Part shown: positions 1,769 to 53,882 of the stretch, one piece after another
How the letters are laid out: every line of letters begins with the position of its first letter
Position numbering within the stretch: position 1 is the stretch's first letter
IMG/VR virus record: IMGVR_UViG_3300041411_000177
Span: 1-64,000 of that record
Strand: one strand, 5' to 3'
Origin: a virus
Taxonomy: Duplodnaviria > Caudoviricetes
Length of the DNA: 64,000 nucleotides
The notes under the pieces: model-generated
What the model saw: only the letters and a program-made list of their open reading frames with translations
Told to the model about the DNA's origin: nothing
Database searches by the model: none
Position numbers and translations under genes: made by a program

Positions 1769-4096
1769 TTACACGTATTTAATGGAGTATTGGTTTGTGC
1801 GCGGGCTGAACTCAGGGAGAGTCGTTGCCTCACTACGAACAATAATCCACGGACGAACGCCAGTCCCATCGTCAAACTGCACGGTGAGAGTTTTCGGCAA
1901 GTTTGCATCGTAACCCGGCAGACCTTCTTCGTTGCCGATCACATCGTTGCGGTAATTGATACCGTCGAATGTGACGTTGAAAGAGTTCTGCAAGTCCACG
2001 ATAAACGTGTCGCCAGCGCGGGCATCCCACATCAGGTAAACATAATCGTCAACCGTGATTGTGGTTTCGATATTTTTCGCAACGCCATCGGTTTGAATAT
2101 CGACGGTGTTGGTCATGACGCTAGTAACGAAGTCGTCAAGGCCTGTCCAGTGGGTGTACTGACGCCCGCTAGCCGAAGTTTCTTCGGTCACACCGTAATC
2201 GCGTTCTTCTTGAGTAATTTCGCTGGCGATTGGGCCACCAGTAAATTCCTTGTTGGAGAACATCGCTACACCGTAACGAAGTGGCGGAATTGTTACCACG
2301 CCAGTTTCGACAGTGATCGCTTTGGTTGCGTTCAGGTTTACGCCGTCTTCGCTGTGTGTTGCGCGCACGTTAACAGCACCGTCTGCAACGCCGGTCACTT
2401 GGCCTTCTGCGTCAACAGTGGCTTTCGTGTTATCCGAAGTTGTCCACTCGCCCGGAATCTTTTCAACAGTAGAACCGTCCGCGTAAGTCACGGAATAAAC
2501 GTACTGTAGGGTTTCCATTGGTGCGATGGAATTAGGCCCGGTGATTACAGCGGATACAGGCCAGTTTTTCGTGTCGGCAATTGCGATTGTTTTCTTCGCA
2601 GTTACAGTCACGCCGTTTTGCGTGTACGAAACGTTCACTTCAACGGTTTTGCTACCCGGTACAGTGAATGGTTTTGCAGTCAGCAAACCGTTTTGATCAA
2701 TGGTCGCATAAGTACCAGAGGTCAAAGTCCACAGCGCGTTCACATCGGCTTCAGAAGCATCAGTGAAAACAACGTGCGCATTCAGATCAACCGATGCGTC
2801 CTGATCTACGGTATTCGGCCCGGTAATCGTGATCGTTTCCGGATAAACCGTAGGATCTTTGATAACCACGTCCAGCAATGCGTTGCGGGTGATACCGCCG
2901 CTTGCGTAGGTGGCCGTCAGACGGGTAGCAACGTCGCGAATTTGTTGCACACGCGGAGTCAACACGCCGCCGACAAAAGAACCGGCGTTCGAATTGCTGG
3001 AAATAAACGCGTTCGGGGTAACAGTGGCGGTCGAGCCGTCGCTGTAGGTTGCCAAAACGGTGTACGTTCCGATTTCAGATTTCAGGAACTGAGTCGGGCC
3101 AACGATTTCGATGTGATCCAAAAGAATCAACGTCGGATCACCGATAATGGTAATCACGAAATCAACGAAAACAGTGTCGCCACTTTCCGCGTGTTCCCAC
3201 GAAGCACGAACCGTTACCGGTGTGTCGATTGCAACCAGACCAGCGTGGAAAACACCAGTTGCCGGATTAATCGAGCCGAATTCTTCGTTGTTGGTGATAG
3301 TCCACGTTGCTTGCACGCTGAAAAACTTCGTGCCGTCATCCATGGTTACGTCGGCGCGCAGAACGTGATTGGTATTACCGTTCACTTTTTCAGCCGGGCC
3401 AACAACCGCAATCGAAACCGGGCGCGGGCCGAGGTATGCGAATTCGGTAGTCGGTGGAAGCCATTCTGCAATGAAGTTTCCGTCTTCGGTTTCTTCGGTG
3501 ATAAACAGCAAAGTTCCGGGCAGCGGATCGGTGCTAGGCACCAACACGTATTTATCGGAACCATCACCAGCCGAAAGCATGGTACGCGGTACATCGCCGT
3601 GCGAATGCGGCAGCGGTGCCCGTGGGTTGCTCATGCGGATATCGTTATCACCGACGACCACAGGGTCTTCAGGATCGACAATTACCGAACCGCTGGAAAG
3701 CAGGAAACCGCCAAAGCGATCTTTCGACGCCAGCGGCGGACGGAAATCAGGAACTGCACCGAGAATCGGGTCAGCTTCTTTTTTGAAAAACTGTTCTTCG
3801 TTGTAGATTTCTTCCACGGTGGAAAGAACCGACCACGAACCACGGTAATCCTTGTCGTCGTATTTTTCTGCATCAACACGGCGCATCAGGACTTTGTAGT
3901 CTTCGTGATTTGGATCAGCGTTAATCCACGTCACGTTGTACGGAACGGTCAAGGTATCCGGTTCGAGAAGAGAAACGAGGACAACGAATTTCTGCGCGTT
4001 GCCCTCGACAATAATCTCGACCGGGTTGAATTTCGAGAGGCCGCGATAGTTCAAAGCAATCGCGATTTTCTCGTCAACAAACTCGGTCAGCGTCAT
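1769..4096 (-). CDS. Ig-like repeat virion protein with an N-terminal module shared with 4106..4750
   Basis: 775 aa; four Ig-like repeats (e.g. ITGPNSIAP...VTYADGS...WTTSDNTKATVDAEGQVTGVADG); N-terminal ~175 aa align by eye to the next gene. Confidence 0.75.
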   Translation of the reverse strand: MTLTEFVDEKIAIALNYRGLSKFNPVEIIVEGNAQKFVVLVSLLEPDTLTVPYNVTWINADPNHEDYKVLMRRVDAEKYDDKDYRGSWSVLSTVEEIYNEEQFFKKEADPILGAVPDFRPPLASKDRFGGFLLSSGSVIVDPEDPVVVGDNDIRMSNPRAPLPHSHGDVPRTMLSAGDGSDKYVLVPSTDPLPGTLLFITEETEDGNFIAEWLPPTTEFAYLGPRPVSIAVVGPAEKVNGNTNHVLRADVTMDDGTKFFSVQATWTITNNEEFGSINPATGVFHAGLVAIDTPVTVRASWEHAESGDTVFVDFVITIIGDPTLILLDHIEIVGPTQFLKSEIGTYTVLATYSDGSTATVTPNAFISSNSNAGSFVGGVLTPRVQQIRDVATRLTATYASGGITRNALLDVVIKDPTVYPETITITGPNTVDQDASVDLNAHVVFTDASEADVNALWTLTSGTYATIDQNGLLTAKPFTVPGSKTVEVNVSYTQNGVTVTAKKTIAIADTKNWPVSAVITGPNSIAPMETLQYVYSVTYADGSTVEKIPGEWTTSDNTKATVDAEGQVTGVADGAVNVRATHSEDGVNLNATKAITVETGVVTIPPLRYGVAMFSNKEFTGGPIASEITQEERDYGVTEETSASGRQYTHWTGLDDFVTSVMTNTVDIQTDGVAKNIETTITVDDYVYLMWDARAGDTFIVDLQNSFNVTFDGINYRNDVIGNEEGLPGYDANLPKTLTVQFDDGTGVRPWIIVRSEATTLPEFSPRTNQYSIKYV

Positions 4097-4105
4097 GACG
4101 ACTCC

Positions 4106-4750
4106 TTATTTCTGAATGTCGGTAGAAGTCAATTGACGCCATTGGGCGTTGTTGTTTCCGCCGTAAATCAGTGTCGAACCAATTACCGGAGTTGCGCCGC
4201 CGCTAATGCTCACGGTGCCCGATTTGGTTTTCAGCGAAACAGCTGGCTTTTCTTCGTGCGTGTGTTCGGTTGGTTTGCGCGCATCGGTCAGACGCGGATC
4301 ACCTTCGCCCACTGCAATTGGAGCCGATGGAGAAACCGGTGCAACGCTCAAACGTGCAATACCCAACACGTTCGTAGTTGCGCCCGGAATCGGATCAAGC
4401 TGCGCCAAAATTGCCGAATCTTCCGCGTCGTAAAACTGATCGACGTTGAATTGATCCATGGTGTCGATCACTTCCCACGTGTGAACCGTGCCCGCCGAAA
4501 CATCAGCGTTTTTCGATACACGACGGCGCGCAGTGTTGTAATACGCGCCGTGGTTTGGGTTGAAATCGAACCAGATAACGTTCAACGGCAGAATTTCGTT
4601 GTACGGTTCGCGCAGAGCGCACACAACGGTGGTCACACGGCGCACCGTGGAATTCTGGATACGGATCGGAATCGGGTTGGTTTCGTCGAGGTTCTGAATG
4701 TCAGATACGACACGCATTGCCTCACGAATATCTACGAGTTGTTTTTCCAT
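4106..4750 (-). CDS. tail-associated structural protein (fibre-attachment module)
   Basis: 214 aa; GDPRLTDARKPTEHTH motif typical of tail-fibre proteins; directly follows the sheath gene. Confidence 0.55.
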   Translation of the reverse strand: MEKQLVDIREAMRVVSDIQNLDETNPIPIRIQNSTVRRVTTVVCALREPYNEILPLNVIWFDFNPNHGAYYNTARRRVSKNADVSAGTVHTWEVIDTMDQFNVDQFYDAEDSAILAQLDPIPGATTNVLGIARLSVAPVSPSAPIAVGEGDPRLTDARKPTEHTHEEKPAVSLKTKSGTVSISGGATPVIGSTLIYGGNNNAQWRQLTSTDIQK

Positions 4751-28222: not shown

Positions 28223-28231
28223 TTAAATTAC
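28223..28231 (-). promoter_or_regulatory. putative late promoter GTAATTTAA
   Basis: About 28 nt upstream of the 28195 start; overlaps the upstream stop codon. Confidence 0.55.
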
Positions 28232-28660
28232 GAATTGTTTGAGTTCATCGTTCCAGAACTCTTTGAATGCGTCGTGAAGCACAAAGATAACTTTACCTTT
28301 GGTTTCTTCGCTACTGTCTTTCAAATGCGGCGTCATGAAACCATCGGTAATAAGATCACAACCCAGCGCCTTTCCGAGTTTGCCATCGAGGGCCAAATCG
28401 TAGTTGGTGATTGGATCGAGAATATTGGCCCAAGCAGCGGAACCGATAATCGTCGCCCATGCCGAATTGTGCAGCAGCATGTATTTGGATTTCGCCAAAA
28501 GCTGCATGGAAAGATTCAGATTGTTTTCGAGAATGTTTTCGTCCATGAAAACCCCATGCTCCACTGCCTCGGCAAGCCGATTGAAGTAGTAAGAAGTTTT
28601 CAGGGAGTCGCCATCTTTAATACGCTCCAAATTCGCTTCCAAAATATCTTTAACAGTCAT
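28223..28660 (-). CDS. 145-aa protein resembling a fragment of the major capsid protein
   Basis: Likely start ATG 28660 (MTVKDIL); WANILDPITNYDLALDGKLGKALGCDLITDGF resembles, from recall, the MCP segment of this phage group. Confidence 0.45.
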   Translation of the reverse strand: MTVKDILEANLERIKDGDSLKTSYYFNRLAEAVEHGVFMDENILENNLNLSMQLLAKSKYMLLHNSAWATIIGSAAWANILDPITNYDLALDGKLGKALGCDLITDGFMTPHLKDSSEETKGKVIFVLHDAFKEFWNDELKQFVI

Positions 28661-33053: not shown

Positions 33054-34454
33054 TTAGGCGAAACGAGCTTTTGGTACTGCGCCACCGGTTTTCTTGGCCG
33101 GTTTAGCAGCGGCGGCTTTGGCGCTAGGCGCTTTAGCTGCTGGTTTTTTCGCGGCTGCTTTAGCTGCTGGTTTTTTGGCAGCCGGTTTAGCGGCGGCTTT
33201 CTTTTCAGCGGCTTTTGCAGGTGCGGCTTCAGCTTTTGCCTTTGCAGGGCGACCGCGTTTCTTCGGTGCTACTGCTGGTGCAGCTTCGGCTTTCGCTTTA
33301 GCTGGACGACCACGTTTTTTCGGAGCATCAGCGGCTGGTGCGGCTGGTGCTTCTTTTTTCGCGGCGGCTTTTTTGCTTGGAGCTTTCTTCGCCGGAGCGG
33401 CTTCAGCTTTCGGCTTGTTTTTCACGCCAGCCGGACGACCGCGTTTTTTCGCTGGTGCTGCTTCAGCGGCTGCTTCTTTTGCTTTGGCAGGACGACCGCG
33501 CTTTTTCGGAGCGGTTGCAGCCGGTGCAGCTTCAGCAGGTTTTGCTTTTGCAGGACGACCGCGTTTCTTCGGAGCAGTGGCCGGGGCAGCTTCAGCGGCA
33601 GCAGGTTTTGCTTTAGCTGGACGACCACGTTTTTTCGGTGCAGGTGCTTCAGCGGCTGCTTCTTTCACCTTGGCCGGACGACCACGTTTCTTTGGAGCGG
33701 CAGCAGGGGCAGCGGCAGGCGCGGCAGCAGCTGGTGCTTTAGGTGCCTTTTTGGAAACACCACCGGCTGCTTTTTTGGCTGCTGGTTTTGCATTACCGAA
33801 ATGCTTGGCTGCGATGCGTGCAACACCTTCTTTTGCCGCTTTCGCGCCGATATCAACCAGACGTTTGCCTTGGGTGCTGATCGGTTTGGCTTTGAAGTTG
33901 CTGATCAGGGACTTCAGGGAGAATTTACCCTTTGGTTTGATTTTCGCCATGGCCTTTTTGTGGTTGGCAGCAGCTTTGGTACGCTCACCGGCGAGGTTCT
34001 TACGCTCGTTGGCGTAGCGGCTTTTTTCTGCTTGACGCATCGCGGCGCGTTTGGCTGGCGGCACTTTTGCAGAACGAATCTTGCTCAGTGCTTTCTGGTG
34101 CGATGCTTGCAGACCCAGCGATTTTTTCCGGATTTGTTCACGGATTTGACGCTGTGCAGCAGTCACTTCGCGCTTCTGACCAGCAGCGTGCGAACCGGCT
34201 TGGCGATGCTTGCGGCGTTTTTTCCACGCCATTACCACTTTCTTCGCTTCGGCTTCAGTTGCACCGTGGCGCATGGCCTTGGTGAAAATCTGGCGAGCGT
34301 GGAACTTCAGCTTTTCAGCCGGAGTCATGGTTTTGTAACGCTGCTTAGCAGCCTTGTTCAGCTTGTGTTTGTTCTTCCGGCGATAGACCTTGCTTTCTTT
34401 CCGAGCTTTCAAAGCCTCGGGGCCTTTCGCCTTCTGGACGGTTTTCATGACCAT
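33054..34454 (-). CDS. histone H1-like, AT-hook repeat DNA-binding protein
   Basis: 466 aa, extremely K/A/P/R-rich; seven (P/A)KKRGRPA repeats; AAKKPAAK tail. Confidence 0.8.
   Translation of the reverse strand: MVMKTVQKAKGPEALKARKESKVYRRKNKHKLNKAAKQRYKTMTPAEKLKFHARQIFTKAMRHGATEAEAKKVVMAWKKRRKHRQAGSHAAGQKREVTAAQRQIREQIRKKSLGLQASHQKALSKIRSAKVPPAKRAAMRQAEKSRYANERKNLAGERTKAAANHKKAMAKIKPKGKFSLKSLISNFKAKPISTQGKRLVDIGAKAAKEGVARIAAKHFGNAKPAAKKAAGGVSKKAPKAPAAAAPAAAPAAAPKKRGRPAKVKEAAAEAPAPKKRGRPAKAKPAAAEAAPATAPKKRGRPAKAKPAEAAPAATAPKKRGRPAKAKEAAAEAAPAKKRGRPAGVKNKPKAEAAPAKKAPSKKAAAKKEAPAAPAADAPKKRGRPAKAKAEAAPAVAPKKRGRPAKAKAEAAPAKAAEKKAAAKPAAKKPAAKAAAKKPAAKAPSAKAAAAKPAKKTGGAVPKARFA
33240..33700 (-). repeat. 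coding tandem repeat: seven KKRGRPA units with Ala/Pro/Glu spacers
   Basis: Degenerate GGACGACC(A/G)CG(T/C)TT repeats visible on the plus strand. Confidence 0.85.
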
Positions 34455-34566: not shown

Positions 34567-35616
34567 TCAGGAGAACCCAAGGGCATTTTTGGCTGCCTTT
34601 ACCTCTTTCATCGTCCATTTGATTTCTTTTAAATCCAAACCTTCTGCACCGAGAAATGCTTCCAATCCGAATTCAGGGTCAATATCCGCCCGTTCGATTT
34701 TAATTGTTTCTATTTCCGAATTATCAATGGCTTTACCGCCAGTCCAGTGAATGCCCCCGGTAATGTTCGGGTATTGCAGCATTAGGTCGGCAGGCATTGG
34801 CACTTCAGGATCGAAATGCAGCTTATAACGGATATTCGAATCGTGCTTCAGTTTCTTCAGGTCATTGAGGTCATTAATTGCGAGATTAATCAGGGTAAAT
34901 CCCGGTTTATTCTCGACGAATTTATGTTCCACTTCGACCTTATCCCCAACCAATGAGACACGTGCATGCACGAACCCTTTAGGCAGAGCTTCACCGAAAT
35001 TCTTTTGAAACGGATTACCGCAATAAACCGCCCGCTTCGCTTTCATGTATTGGTATTGATGTATATGTCCGCTGATCGTGAAATCGTTTTTATGCGAAAC
35101 CAATTCATGCTTTGTTTTCAGCGTGCGCCCGTTGTCACCGATTGCCCCAGTATATTCCACGTGAGCAACGTTCAACGCACCCTGTTTCTTCGACAGGGTT
35201 TTCAGGCACGGGTAAGGCAGCAGATTGACCGGCACACCTTCGATTTCAATGCGCTCTGCTTTCAATACGATTTTGAGGTTTTTGAATGCGCGAGTCTTGC
35301 TCAGACGATACATGAAATTCATCGACATTTTCTCGACGTTTTCAAAGTCGTGATTGCCCGCCACGTAAATGATGGTCAGCAGCTTGTCGTATTTGTAGAA
35401 CAGATTAAATAGTTTGGTGTAGGTATCGAATGGCAGATCCGGATTATCGGTAATGTCGCCCGGAATAATCAGGTATTTAATACCGTTATTCAAAGCGTAC
35501 TGCATGATCTTTTCACCCTCGGCCAGAATGCGATCATCGCCATCCGAGAAATGTTTATTCAGGCCGGTCAGGTGCCAGTCGCTGGTGAATACCGCATCGA
35601 ACGAAGGATTTGCCAC
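34567..35616 (-). CDS. sbcD: SbcD/Mre11/gp47-like metallophosphoesterase nuclease
   Basis: SDWH, GDITD, GNHD and GHIH motifs. Confidence 0.9.
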   Translation of the reverse strand: MANPSFDAVFTSDWHLTGLNKHFSDGDDRILAEGEKIMQYALNNGIKYLIIPGDITDNPDLPFDTYTKLFNLFYKYDKLLTIIYVAGNHDFENVEKMSMNFMYRLSKTRAFKNLKIVLKAERIEIEGVPVNLLPYPCLKTLSKKQGALNVAHVEYTGAIGDNGRTLKTKHELVSHKNDFTISGHIHQYQYMKAKRAVYCGNPFQKNFGEALPKGFVHARVSLVGDKVEVEHKFVENKPGFTLINLAINDLNDLKKLKHDSNIRYKLHFDPEVPMPADLMLQYPNITGGIHWTGGKAIDNSEIETIKIERADIDPEFGLEAFLGAEGLDLKEIKWTMKEVKAAKNALGFS

Positions 35617-35625
35617 GGGTTATTC

Positions 35626-35931
35626 CTATTTACGTTTCCACGACAGGTCTAATTCGTATCCGAGTTTGGCAGCAATCCCGATTAACACATCGAGGTCAGC
35701 CTCTGCCAATTTATCGCATTCATCTTCGGGAACAGAGTCGTGAAAATATGGAGTGAGTTCGCGATTTAATGGGCCGCCCATACGCAGGTACTGGCCTTGC
35801 ACAAACAATTTGATTCGTGCGCGTTTTTTGTGGTGCGGAATGCCCTTGAGCATGGGCCGTGCCTGCCGCTCTAATTCGTTGAGAATAATAGCGCACAGTT
35901 CGCGTCTCATCTTATTTACAGTATGGTGCAT
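35626..35931 (-). CDS. hypothetical protein
   Basis: 101-aa ORF; alternative start 35910. Confidence 0.55.
   Translation of the reverse strand: MHHTVNKMRRELCAIILNELERQARPMLKGIPHHKKRARIKLFVQGQYLRMGGPLNRELTPYFHDSVPEDECDKLAEADLDVLIGIAAKLGYELDLSWKRK
35913..35921 (-). promoter_or_regulatory. CTGTAAATA promoter motif
   Basis: Exact motif upstream of the sbcD-like transcription unit. Confidence 0.5.
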
Positions 35932-35937
35932 GGCGGC

Positions 35938-36327
35938 TTAATCCAGTTTGACCGTGAATTGAATACGCCGGGCGGGCATGCTGTACAATTCCAATTCCGT
36001 ATACAGCACACCGATTTCACGGCGACCGATTTTGTGAGCCTTACGGCGACCGCTGATAATCTTGTCGAAAATGCGATTGCCTGTCGCATCGTTGAGGCGC
36101 ACAACACATTGATTTTTAATATCGTGAATCGTATAGGACGCAACCTGTGCAGTGTGGTGATCATACACGCCGCGACTCGATTTGATTTCGTCGAGATATT
36201 TATCAAGGCGCATACCCAAATCCTCACTGGTCAGCTTGGAATTCAGATTGTGGCCCACAAGTTCGGTCAGTTGTTCCTGAATGTGTTTCAGCAGATGGTG
36301 GGCATTGATATTGTCGAGGGGAGTCAT
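35938..36327 (-). CDS. stand-alone tail-sheath C-terminal-domain paralog
   Basis: NINAHHLL..I / LDKYLDEIKSSRGVYD / PARRIQFTV align with sheath NVNVRRLV..I / VDAEAASVKRGRGLYE / PASRASLTA; start ATG 36327 is coupled to the LysM gene. Confidence 0.65.
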   Translation of the reverse strand: MTPLDNINAHHLLKHIQEQLTELVGHNLNSKLTSEDLGMRLDKYLDEIKSSRGVYDHHTAQVASYTIHDIKNQCVVRLNDATGNRIFDKIISGRRKAHKIGRREIGVLYTELELYSMPARRIQFTVKLD

Positions 36328-36641
36328 GAGCGCTCCTTGTGGCGCAGACGCAGGCAAGAACCGAAGTAAATGATTTTCGGATCGGCAATGTTGTTGATGA
36401 ACGCCAGCCGGTCAACTTCCACACCGAAACGCGGCGCAATTTCTGCTAGCGTGTCGTTGGTTTTGATGTGGTAAATATTGAAGTCGTCACCGAGCTTGCG
36501 TTCGTACTGGATATCGTCGAAGCATTCTTGCGGCGGGGTATACACGCAGCGCTTACGGAACATGTGGTGATCCAGCGGGTTCAGCTGTTCAGCCAGCATT
36601 TCGATTAGTTCTTCGCGATCCATTTCAACAACTGCATTCAT
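36324..36641 (-). CDS. LysM domain protein
   Basis: YHIKTNDTLAEIAPRFGVEVDRLAFINNIADPKIIYFGSCLRL. Confidence 0.88.
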   Translation of the reverse strand: MNAVVEMDREELIEMLAEQLNPLDHHMFRKRCVYTPPQECFDDIQYERKLGDDFNIYHIKTNDTLAEIAPRFGVEVDRLAFINNIADPKIIYFGSCLRLRHKERS

Positions 36642-37224: not shown

Positions 37225-37566
37225 TTATTCCCCGGTATTTGGTTTCCAAAGTTTCGCATATTTCAAAACATTCGGTACGTTGTCGCTGTAAACGGGCATC
37301 ACCACAAGGCAAGAAGGTTCCCCGTTACAGATTGTGTTTTCGTGGCCTTGGTGGCAGGCCAGAGTCCCACGGATTTTGTCGAACTCACGACGATTCACGC
37401 GCAGGGTTACTTTGCGGAAAGAGTTGTGCAGCCAGTCGTGATAAATGCCGTTCGTTTCAAACTTTTGATGCGCAGTCAGGATGGAATGCGCGACCAGTGT
37501 AGGCACCATGTAATCAGGTGCTTCGTCGAGAACGGCGATGTACATTTTGCTGTAGAGGTCGATCAT
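37225..37566 (-). CDS. peptidyl-tRNA hydrolase type 2 (Pth2)-like protein
   Basis: KMYIAV...VAHS...WL...FRKVTLRV...CLVVMP...LKYAKLW follows the Pth2 secondary-structure pattern. Confidence 0.6.
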   Translation of the reverse strand: MIDLYSKMYIAVLDEAPDYMVPTLVAHSILTAHQKFETNGIYHDWLHNSFRKVTLRVNRREFDKIRGTLACHQGHENTICNGEPSCLVVMPVYSDNVPNVLKYAKLWKPNTGE

Positions 37567-52215: not shown

Positions 52216-53073
52216 TTAGAGGCTGGATGCGGTCAATTTGTCGTAAAGTTCAAGGATGTTTGCGTTGAAATCAAACCCTTTCAAACCATGCAAACAAACT
52301 TTGCAATCAGGCCAATCATGTTCGGCACAATTGGTGGGCATTGCCATCATGCGCGGTGGAAGTGGGCACGGGTCAGCGCCCATTAGCAGACGTTCGCAAA
52401 CCAGCTTTACAACCTTGACCATTTGTTCGCCGGTCAGCATGTAGTTTTCACCGGTTTGACCAGTGCTGATTTGCACCGTTGCTTGTGGTTCTTCAACCAC
52501 ACCACAATCGACCACTGGGTTTGCAATGGGAGTTTCACACGGTTGAGCCAGCAATTCTGGTGGCGGTGGATTTGGAATAACTTGTTGGAATGTGCCATTT
52601 TCTGGCACGCCTTCCATCATGGTATTTCCATTAACAGAAATGCGAATTTTCCGTGGGCCGTAAGTCTGAATGCAAACCGATGTACCACCGTCACGCTGAA
52701 ATGTGGTCACGTCTGCATAAGTCGGTTCCATGTTGGCGGGTGTGGATTCCGCTTCACCCGTGCCGTGCATGGCGTTCCACTCGCTACGGGTAATGTCGCC
52801 CATGGATGCAGTCGCCATGTGCATTTCGTTTGGAATAAAATCCGGGGCCGCTCGTTTCTTTTCCAGCGTGGCCGCCAGTTCGGGTTTCATCTGCTGCCAC
52901 AAATTGCTGAATTCACGCGAGTTATGATTCTCGATGCAGTCCGCCAATTTATCCGCCGACGCTTTGGAAAACAGCGGCATGATCATTCGCAGCATCAGGC
53001 TACGCTTTTGCTTCAGCGTCTGCGCGTTGCGTGCCATCGTGATCATGTTGGAAGCAATGGTTAATTCTTTCAT
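52216..53073 (-). CDS. hypothetical protein
   Basis: Likely start ATG 53073 (coupled); MATAS motif; C-terminal CxxC. Confidence 0.6.
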   Translation of the reverse strand: MKELTIASNMITMARNAQTLKQKRSLMLRMIMPLFSKASADKLADCIENHNSREFSNLWQQMKPELAATLEKKRAAPDFIPNEMHMATASMGDITRSEWNAMHGTGEAESTPANMEPTYADVTTFQRDGGTSVCIQTYGPRKIRISVNGNTMMEGVPENGTFQQVIPNPPPPELLAQPCETPIANPVVDCGVVEEPQATVQISTGQTGENYMLTGEQMVKVVKLVCERLLMGADPCPLPPRMMAMPTNCAEHDWPDCKVCLHGLKGFDFNANILELYDKLTASSL

Positions 53074-53882
53074 TTGTCCTCCCACACAATAGGGCCGTGC
53101 AAGCCTTCATAAGTCCGGGTCGAATTCTCCAACGCAGTTTTCAAATCCGGGTGCAGTTCTTCACGGGTAACGCCCGACAAACGAATAGAGCGAACCGACC
53201 GCCCACGAACCGAATACGCAGATTCTTTCACGTTGTTAATCCACAGCGTGCGGCCATCATGGCCTTCCGGGCCTTCGTTGAAATCAGCAGCACGCACAAC
53301 CACATCGAACCAATTTGGTTCTGCATCTTTGGCCGTCTTTTTCTGTTTCACGGTACGCACCACAACAATTTCGTTTTCGTCAGTGTGCAGCACCTTTTCG
53401 ACCGTGGAATCAATCCATTTGTTGGTCACGACGACGGCACCAACAGGATCTTTGTTTGCATCCATGAACATGTCGAGAATTGCCTGCATGTCTTCGATGG
53501 TTGGCGTCCAGTTATTGGAACCTGCTTTGACATGCAGAATGCGTTTCAGCGTGTTCAGCGTGTAACCGTCTTCGAAAACGTCTTGAGGGCTGAACGATTC
53601 GTGGCCGTTGGAATAGCGTACAAAATAACCGCCAGTGTGAACCGCGTTGCGTTCCATGTAATCGTCGCCAACCACCGCAACGAATTCGCCAGTCTTATCG
53701 ACCAAAACATATTCGGTTTTGCATGCGGTCGGCATCGATTCCATCGTTCCACCTTCGCGGGGAATCATCATGTATTGCTGGGCCGGAATCGTGTCGCTGT
53801 GTGTGCCTTCCTGCTGCGCGGTGATGTGCGCGATTTGAAACGCTTCGACTTGTTTGTGGCAATTGTAGATTGGGAAATTCAT
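53070..53882 (-). CDS. mosaic protein: GYFVRY..G.ESFSP..VFE.GY domain plus a portal-like segment
   Basis: 270 aa; first domain is a common phage module; RILHVKAG...DPVGAVVVT resembles, from recall, a portal segment of this phage group. Confidence 0.45.
   Translation of the reverse strand: MNFPIYNCHKQVEAFQIAHITAQQEGTHSDTIPAQQYMMIPREGGTMESMPTACKTEYVLVDKTGEFVAVVGDDYMERNAVHTGGYFVRYSNGHESFSPQDVFEDGYTLNTLKRILHVKAGSNNWTPTIEDMQAILDMFMDANKDPVGAVVVTNKWIDSTVEKVLHTDENEIVVVRTVKQKKTAKDAEPNWFDVVVRAADFNEGPEGHDGRTLWINNVKESAYSVRGRSVRSIRLSGVTREELHPDLKTALENSTRTYEGLHGPIVWEDK

Follow-up and report, generated by a model that had tools for sequence, protein, structure and literature searches.

The locus considered here raises the question of what a small protein resembling the end of a contractile tail sheath is doing among genes of DNA metabolism. 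We examined a window of 64,000 nucleotides of viral DNA (the whole stretch that was analysed), which belongs to a phage related to HRDY3 and Lu11, jumbo phages of Pseudomonas. In a search of sequencing runs, the best DNA match was a rhizosphere metagenome, from which the window may derive, and no RNA run was listed. All coordinates given below for features of the window refer to the minus strand. Positions 35938..36327 hold the coding sequence of a 129-amino-acid protein (P0001), with a TAA stop codon at 35938-35940 included in these coordinates. The start, read from the sequence, is the ATG at 36327, and a Shine-Dalgarno motif (AAGGAG, 36333..36338) lies 5 nt upstream of it, within the end of the preceding gene. 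That gene (36324..36641) encodes a LysM protein of 105 amino acids (Pfam LysM E 9.9e-8), and its TGA stop shares four nucleotides (ATGA) with the P0001 start. This overlap, together with an adjacency that recurs in relatives, bears out the coupling to a LysM gene described in a first-pass annotation of this DNA.

Six nucleotides past P0001 begins a conserved ORF of 101 amino acids (35626..35931), which is 52% identical to an ORF of HRDY3 and is also present in contigs L052-L054. It is followed by a gene for an SbcD/Mre11-like nuclease (34567..35616), 78-83% identical to the SbcD-like genes of HRDY3 and Lu11; SbcD is a fixed downstream neighbour in Lu11-like phages. Scans for sigma-70 promoters and for terminators across the LysM, P0001, 101-amino-acid ORF and SbcD genes gave nothing above background. 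The sequence GTAAATAG occurs at 35626-35633, just upstream of the SbcD start, and is a core match to the ‘middle/late promoter’ annotated at the equivalent place in Lu11, CTGTAAATAGATAGAA; it occurs only three times in the window, which is too few for defining transcription units. In Lu11, the annotated ‘middle/late’ promoter able to drive the P0001 homologue sits upstream of a clamp-loader-like gene, and a second annotated promoter stands immediately before SbcD.

The surrounding genes have features of their own. The 466-amino-acid protein encoded after SbcD (33054-34454) contains AT-hook motifs (Pfam AT_hook E 6.3e-9), and its 440-amino-acid orthologue has a 26-residue stretch in common, at 69% identity, with a 94-amino-acid ORF of HRDY3 (172272-172553). 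On the other side of P0001, an ORF of 113 amino acids (37225-37566) corresponds to the N-terminal domain of the protein annotated as ‘endolysin’ in Lu11 and HRDY3 (67-69% identity). In those phages this domain and LysM form a single protein; in the window they are two genes (37225-37566 and 36324-36641) with two unknown ORFs between them. The 113-amino-acid ORF gave a weak PTH2-like Pfam match only (E 0.0076) and no lysin domain, and the endolysin label in Lu11 and HRDY3 may rest on LysM alone. The tail sheath gene of this phage (P0002, 4756..6396, 546 amino acids; phrog_23 E 2.8e-59, PF04984 and PF17482) is 30 kb from P0001, so that the distance from tail genes noted in the first-pass annotation holds as regards the sheath. 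Downstream of the sheath, three genes (35-1756, 1769-4096 and 4106-4750) are mutual paralogs with 28-30% identity over 170-330 residues, and the 214-amino-acid paralog is the positional counterpart of the PaBG ‘structural tail protein’ gp214.

To single-sequence methods, the relation between P0001 and the sheath of the same phage is invisible: BLASTP gave no match between the two (E 44), and Smith-Waterman alignment of P0001 with the sheath C-terminus yielded a z of 1.2-1.5, a score that was reached by 88-129 of 1000 shuffles. Comparison of profiles gave a different result. When the P0001 family (16 sequences) was compared by hhalign with an alignment of the own-sheath family (14 sequences), residues 4-129 of P0001 were paired with sheath residues 438-535 over 95 columns, with a probability of 95.6%, an E of 1.3e-8 and a score of 62.7; the single gap lies opposite P0001 residues 79-103. 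Control scores were far lower, at 14.9 and 16.6 for reversed alignments and 21.8 for the best of 30 column shuffles. The alignment reported in the first-pass annotation is thus significant between families and insignificant between the two sequences by themselves, and the three motif pairs quoted there are precisely the columns that hhalign aligned.

Wider searches led to sheaths as well. A tblastn search of P0001 against 50,697 phage records found its orthologues in HRDY3 (E 1e-8) and Lu11 (E 8e-6) and about 90 weak matches (E 0.01-0.8) at residues 2-58; among the matches listed, every one that is not an orthologue falls in an annotated sheath gene (of Aeromonas T4-like, P. putida and Thermus phages). 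With the family profile, sheaths came out on top of the PDB sequences (9ev2_S1, E 0.0088; gp18, 9mkb, E 0.036), with T4 gp18, Afp2 and another sheath as further matches, always at the start of the C-terminal domain, and a whole-genome search of PaBG matched the C-terminus of its sheath, gp213 (E 3.1e-4). The sheath-invariant residues R444, D499, N503, P524, A525 and R527 are mostly retained in the P0001 family. At the level of motifs, P0001 has a collinear series in common with PF17482, the T4 gp18 C-terminal domain and domain II of A-1(L) gp9, namely the NxNVRRL helix, the RGxY turn, the xCDxxNN hairpin and the PAxR strand. The gathering score of PF17482 (26.9 bits) was not reached: P0001 itself gave no match, and two of eight family members did, the best at E 0.005. 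Otherwise, Pfam and PHROGs returned only chance-level matches for P0001 (THP2; an exonuclease PHROG at E 0.035).

Two full-length sheath paralogs are typical of this phage group (PMC7412058), and we confirmed their presence. The P0001 profile matched both lineages at full length, the P0002 type somewhat better (E 4e-7) than sheath-2 (E 2.3e-5), and these matches do not decide from which of them it came. From these sequence comparisons we conclude that P0001 is remotely homologous to the final ~100 residues of its own phage's sheath. It is a diverged, free-standing copy of the contractile-sheath C-terminal inner domain, and its relatives constitute a new small family that is a variant of a known domain.

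A predicted structure is consistent with this assignment. The AlphaFold2 model of P0001 is of moderate confidence (pLDDT 71.7, pTM 0.57), and when it was compared with 48,161 PDB representatives, the best match was the phi812 sheath (5li2_A; Z 8.0, rmsd 3.0, 84 residues), followed by an Anabaena CIS chain (7b5h_AO, Z 7.3) and the Mu sheath (9khy_a, Z 6.8). All three matches cover the C-terminal ~90 residues of their chains, and sheath chains occupy ranks 1, 2, 3, 7, 13, 34, 37 and 46 of the 48,161. Two proteins that are not sheaths, both under the top sheath matches, were IraD (6od1; rank 4, Z 6.5, 84 residues) and a 121-residue chain of a T6SS baseplate (6gj1; rank 8, Z 6.1). According to the model, P0001 has the fold of the sheath C-domain, with two helices, a beta-hairpin and a C-terminal strand. 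With its sheath relatives leading both the profile comparison, with clean controls, and the structural search, the stand-alone paralog that the first-pass annotation had described is well founded. Foldseek searches with the model found nothing below E 0.001 in the PDB, and the sole matches in BFVD were the relatives in Lu11 and PaBG. The ESM Atlas, whose model of the protein is poor, gave no information. OB-fold-like rows (LysRS N-domain, HIN, SSB) and uS17 (E 0.13) appeared in some searches and are treated as chance, since they were not reproduced with a larger profile.

Mapped onto the gene, the alignment divides P0001 into four segments. Residues 1-56 (36160..36327) correspond to sheath residues 438-491 and form two helices (3-25 and 34-49 in the AlphaFold2 model) with the motifs NINxRRL..I and RGVYD, an assignment on which hhalign and the PDB profile matches agree. 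Residues 57-78 (36094..36159) are the highly conserved first hairpin strand, in which SYTIHDxKN is equivalent by the alignments and hhalign to ICDxRNN of the sheath, and they are modelled with a pLDDT of ~90. The last segment, residues 104-129 (35941..36018), contains the second hairpin strand and the PARRIQF strand, which hhalign aligns with DP.IPA.R of the sheath; it ends 11 residues short of the equivalent of the sheath C-terminus. Between the two hairpin strands, residues 79-103 (36019..36093) constitute an insertion of ~25 residues that has no sheath counterpart in hhalign and takes the place of the sheath hairpin loop. It is predicted to comprise a beta-hairpin and a basic helix, GRRKAHKIGRR (AlphaFold2 strands 73-79 and 85-91, helix 94-104). 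Its net charge of +5 and the hhalign gap opposite it agree with the basic insertion of the first-pass annotation, and the pI across the family is ~9. An AbrB-type swapped hairpin was considered for the insertion and rejected, as there was no SpoVT_AbrB match at E up to 10 and the spacing differs.

The distribution of conserved residues over these segments is uneven. R94, R95, A97 and R102 are invariant in the family and C74, V76, G101 and G106 are nearly so, and all of them lie in or beside the insertion, which is the best-conserved part of the protein; conservation is lowest in the sheath-like helices, parts of which are missing from distant members. Sheath residues 1-437 and 536-546 have no equivalent in P0001, so that the PF04984 core is absent, as are the sites of the sheath-invariant residues S7, G9, Y11, G538, F543 and E545. 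In sheath proteins generally, the N- and C-terminal ends are the linker arms that join subunits to one another. In comparison with a sheath, then, P0001 is free-standing and only 129 amino acids long, lacks the N-terminal 437 and the last 11 residues, carries an additional ~25 residues and is encoded amid DNA-metabolism genes. Its dN/dS relative to two relatives is 0.27-0.37; with the invariant motifs and the number of clusters in the family, this marks P0001 as a real gene under purifying selection.

A profile search of 1.84 billion representative proteins returned 12 clusters, of which 11 are real; the other, a 780-amino-acid protein (P0018), is a repeat-protein false positive and was excluded. 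The family is confined to Lu11/HRDY3/PaBG-like jumbo phages. In all nine contigs examined, each of which contains a family member (the window, HRDY3, Lu11, L005, L006, L007, L052, L053 and L054), the gene order is SbcC, about ten small genes, the P0001 homologue, zero to two small ORFs and SbcD. Among the small genes that follow SbcC are one for an HTH_37 regulator and one or two for LysM proteins. In Lu11-like phages the homologue usually overlaps a LysM gene; a LysM ORF lies immediately upstream of it in the window, L005, L006, L052, L053 and L054, and in L005 and L006 the homologue overlaps the SbcD start. The first-pass annotation had placed the gene in an accessory island; its position between SbcC and SbcD is kept in all Lu11-like relatives examined, and this conserved position and a dN/dS of ~0.3 mark it as a gene of the clade and not as island cargo.

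Farther afield, the pattern loosens. The PaBG homologue (PaBG_00050, E 2.4e-8) is 110 kb from SbcD, so the link to SbcD is not universal. It adjoins a gene annotated as DprA-like, for which Pfam gave no confirmation, and a muramidase is ~3 kb off. The gene beside it, PaBG_00051 (gp51; L017 7946-8359), contains a beta-beta-basic-helix segment like the insertion of P0001 (strands followed by RRFRKRRIAKKY; hhalign E 0.002), and in BFVD further proteins of PaBG are predicted to fold similarly (S5VV27, TM 0.68). This may be a local paralog cluster. We found no family member in NCTB or Erwinia Y3, and in Dickeya JA13 the family search weakly matched only a 658-amino-acid ORF that is probably a sheath; these three phages also have two sheaths. 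No P0001-like ORF adjoins SbcD in PaBG, NCTB, Y3 or JA13.

Since sheath initiators resemble the sheath inner domain, P0001 has to be compared with gp25, an alternative that the first-pass annotation had raised. T4 gp25, TssE and gpW (PF04965) are, like P0001, small single-domain proteins of ~130 amino acids, and P0001 may have their fold (6gj1 at Z 6.1 and IraD at Z 6.5, both lower than the sheath matches); unlike them, P0001 has no match to PF04965 and is nearer in sequence to the sheath itself. None of eight family members matched PF04965 at E up to 10, and hhalign found no match between the P0001 profile and the gp25 proteins of HRDY3 and Lu11 (E 0.096). A canonical GPW_gp25 is encoded elsewhere, ~90 kb away, in both HRDY3, where it scores above the threshold (28.6 bits), and Lu11 (19.2 bits); inside the 64-kb window there is none. 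The presence of a canonical gp25 elsewhere in HRDY3 and Lu11 argues that P0001 is not the gp25 equivalent, and the suggestion that it is the essential baseplate protein of that type falls away.

Initiators are nevertheless instructive for what P0001 could do. In A-1(L), the sheath initiator is folded like sheath domain II, and both the N-tail and the C-tail of first-ring sheath subunits are bound by it (PMC10966104). By analogy with gp25 and TssE, P0001 could accept sheath linker strands (PMC10966104). The reading that we prefer, to which we give a probability of roughly 0.4, is that P0001 mimics the sheath inner domain as a soluble protein that does not polymerise. The segments missing from it, sheath residues 1-437 and 536-546, are those that would carry the linker arms joining subunits. 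Without these arms, P0001 could accept linker strands of the sheath type, and perhaps contact the tube, as a sheath subunit or an initiator does, and it could not extend the polymer; accepting strands without propagating a polymer is what would make it a cap, holder or interferer. In such a mechanism, P0001 would be produced from a middle/late DNA-metabolism operon along with the LysM protein and would act on sheath or tube subunits by capping, holding or redirecting them, whether they belong to its own phage or to a rival contractile machine, and the basic helix would provide a new, family-specific contact. In favour of a mimic are the homology and fold described above, the retained sheath-invariant residues, a second sheath-derived protein in the operon (see below) and the two full sheath paralogs of this phage group. 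Several observations tell against it: conservation favours the insertion over the sheath-like helices, a pattern that fits neofunctionalisation away from the tail; the gene travels with DNA-metabolism genes and not with those for sheath, tube or baseplate; it went undetected in NCTB, Erwinia Y3 and Dickeya JA13 despite their two sheaths; and the model is of moderate confidence, with no significant Foldseek match in the PDB. Overall, what the first-pass annotation observed is confirmed, and its interpretation is partly supported.

The company that P0001 keeps is more easily accommodated by the main rival, which we consider somewhat less probable: the sheath fold would serve only as a frame on which the basic helix and small beta-sheet bind a new partner, in DNA metabolism or regulation unrelated to tails. 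Nucleic acid, the SbcCD nuclease and the coupled LysM protein, through its acidic N-terminus, would be candidate partners. The site of conservation and the neighbours favour such an exaptation. The invariant residues of the family (R94, R95, A97 and R102) fall in an insertion with a net charge of +5, in proteins with a pI of ~9, and the operon to which the gene belongs also includes SbcC, a clamp-loader-like gene and an HTH regulator; the gene lies directly before SbcD, whose start it overlaps in L005 and L006. The PaBG homologue, for its part, is beside the gene annotated as DprA-like and beside gp51 with its similar beta-beta-basic-helix module. There is also a structural precedent, in that IraD is among the best structural matches (Z 6.5). 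IraD, the anti-adaptor of RssB in E. coli, belongs to the GpW/gp25 family in UniProt. It is a small protein of this fold acting outside tails, and as such a precedent for regulatory exaptation; unlike P0001, it is a host protein, it has no sequence relation to P0001, and no counterpart of its response-regulator partner was seen here. What weakens this rival is the lack of a nucleic-acid signature and the context in PaBG: no nucleic-acid-binding family or fold was found (nothing in Pfam, and uS17 and OB-like matches at chance level), the PaBG gene is 110 kb from SbcD, and its DprA-like neighbour has that annotation without confirmation from Pfam. In addition, several sheath-invariant residues are still present in P0001.

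The LysM neighbour points in another direction, towards a part of the virion. P0001 could be an adaptor or an additional sheath initiator that sits in the baseplate or neck and acts jointly with the small LysM protein, perhaps as a requirement of a two-component sheath, a proposal that we regard as unlikely. It may share its fold with initiators of the gp25/TssE type, and the LysM gene is translationally coupled to it. Two sheath-initiator subunits of A-1(L) enclose gp16, which is a small LysM protein, and a LysM domain is present in T4 gp53 too (PMC10966104). Genes of virion type, such as the HRDY3 head-tail connector, start a few kilobases downstream of SbcD, and the giant SNF2 protein encoded downstream of SbcD is a candidate homolog of a 221-kDa virion protein of PaBG, a phage whose proteome is limited to 14 gel bands. 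Against a place in the virion stand the canonical gp25 found elsewhere in HRDY3 and Lu11, the lack of baseplate, sheath or tube genes nearby in any genome seen, and the absence of P0001, or its undetectability, in other two-sheath phages; the LysM domain, moreover, has the sequence of a generic peptidoglycan binder.

P0001 is not the only protein here that resembles a piece of the virion. In the same operon, P0050 (37563..37961, 132 amino acids) combines a sheath hairpin (hhalign E 1.2e-9) with an HTH_37 domain (E 1.1e-9) and is thus a second sheath derivative. When its family was compared with the own-sheath family by hhalign, residues 4-44 were equivalent to the hairpin at sheath residues 492-532, and for this protein the relation can be seen in single sequences, with 42% identity to the own sheath over 36 residues (492-527; tblastn and blastp E 7e-5 and 8e-6) and a match to the tail sheath family phrog_10581 (E 4.8e-5). 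The hairpin motif, ICDxTNNxP, is invariant in ten relatives; it occurs in Lu11_0114, is in an ORF separate from the HTH in HRDY3 and is also present in the unrelated PaBG_00291. P0050 may have a regulatory role, sensing sheath subunits or docking to them, and its location in the P0001 operon indicates that sheath-derived surfaces are reused here.

Elsewhere in the window, a small ORF at 28223-28660 contains a piece resembling the major head protein: its residues 61-114 match part of the HRDY3 protein at 52% identity (E 3e-14) and part of Lu11_0065. Lu11 has a tandem-duplicated copy, and HRDY3 seems to be without the small gene. A 270-amino-acid protein (53070-53882) similarly matches the HRDY3 portal over its residues 113-158, with 59% identity (E 2e-11), and Lu11_0185; this protein has orthologues in both HRDY3 and Lu11.

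Such fragments bear on another role that the first-pass annotation had considered for P0001, that of an immune decoy: by its likeness to the sheath inner domain it would occupy a host sensor that recognises this domain, and it would be one of a set of small proteins carrying pieces of capsid, portal and sheath. The major head (52%, E 3e-14) and portal (59%, E 2e-11) fragments in small ORFs, the sheath hairpin embedded in an HTH protein and a transcription unit shared with replication and repair genes are in keeping with a decoy. To our knowledge, however, no defence system that senses the tail sheath has been described; no anti-defence family was matched in Pfam or PHROGs; and the gene is conserved and syntenic, not variable, unlike most counter-defence genes. 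We therefore hold a decoy to be quite improbable.

That P0001 is an unrelated small alpha/beta protein and its resemblance to sheaths a matter of chance is hardly credible: the pairwise alignment is insignificant, Foldseek found nothing in the PDB below E 0.001 and a VIA Z of 8 is at the level where common arrangements can match, but the profile-profile comparison (E 1.3e-8) scored 62.7 against a maximum of 21.8 among 32 controls, the same region was matched in four unrelated sheath lineages, and many sheath chains are within the top 50 of 48,161 structures.

Taken together with the hairpin-HTH protein and the genes with capsid and portal fragments, P0001 points to a reuse of virion surfaces in the non-structural genes of jumbo phages. 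We found no description of such reuse in the literature searched, and a literature search on HRDY3 found nothing. On a speculative reading that we think rather unlikely, this clade of jumbo phages would make small ‘virion-part mimics’, among them P0001, the hairpin-HTH protein and the capsid- and portal-segment proteins, that control or report the state of virion assembly or blind host sensors of structural proteins; an example would be a transcription factor that sheath subunits sequester as they accumulate. On the same reading, sheath-domain genes standing alone among replication genes may recur in unrelated myophages, as a class not yet described.

Contractile machines, whether phage tails, tailocins, eCIS or T6SS, polymerise and begin to polymerise through the sheath inner domain. 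A conserved, soluble copy that lacks the arms and has gained a basic helix is thus an obvious candidate for regulating or inhibiting the assembly of sheaths; otherwise, P0001 would follow IraD as a second clear example of the fold serving another purpose. As a small and easily expressed protein, P0001 offers a means of testing whether sheath polymerisation can be capped in trans.
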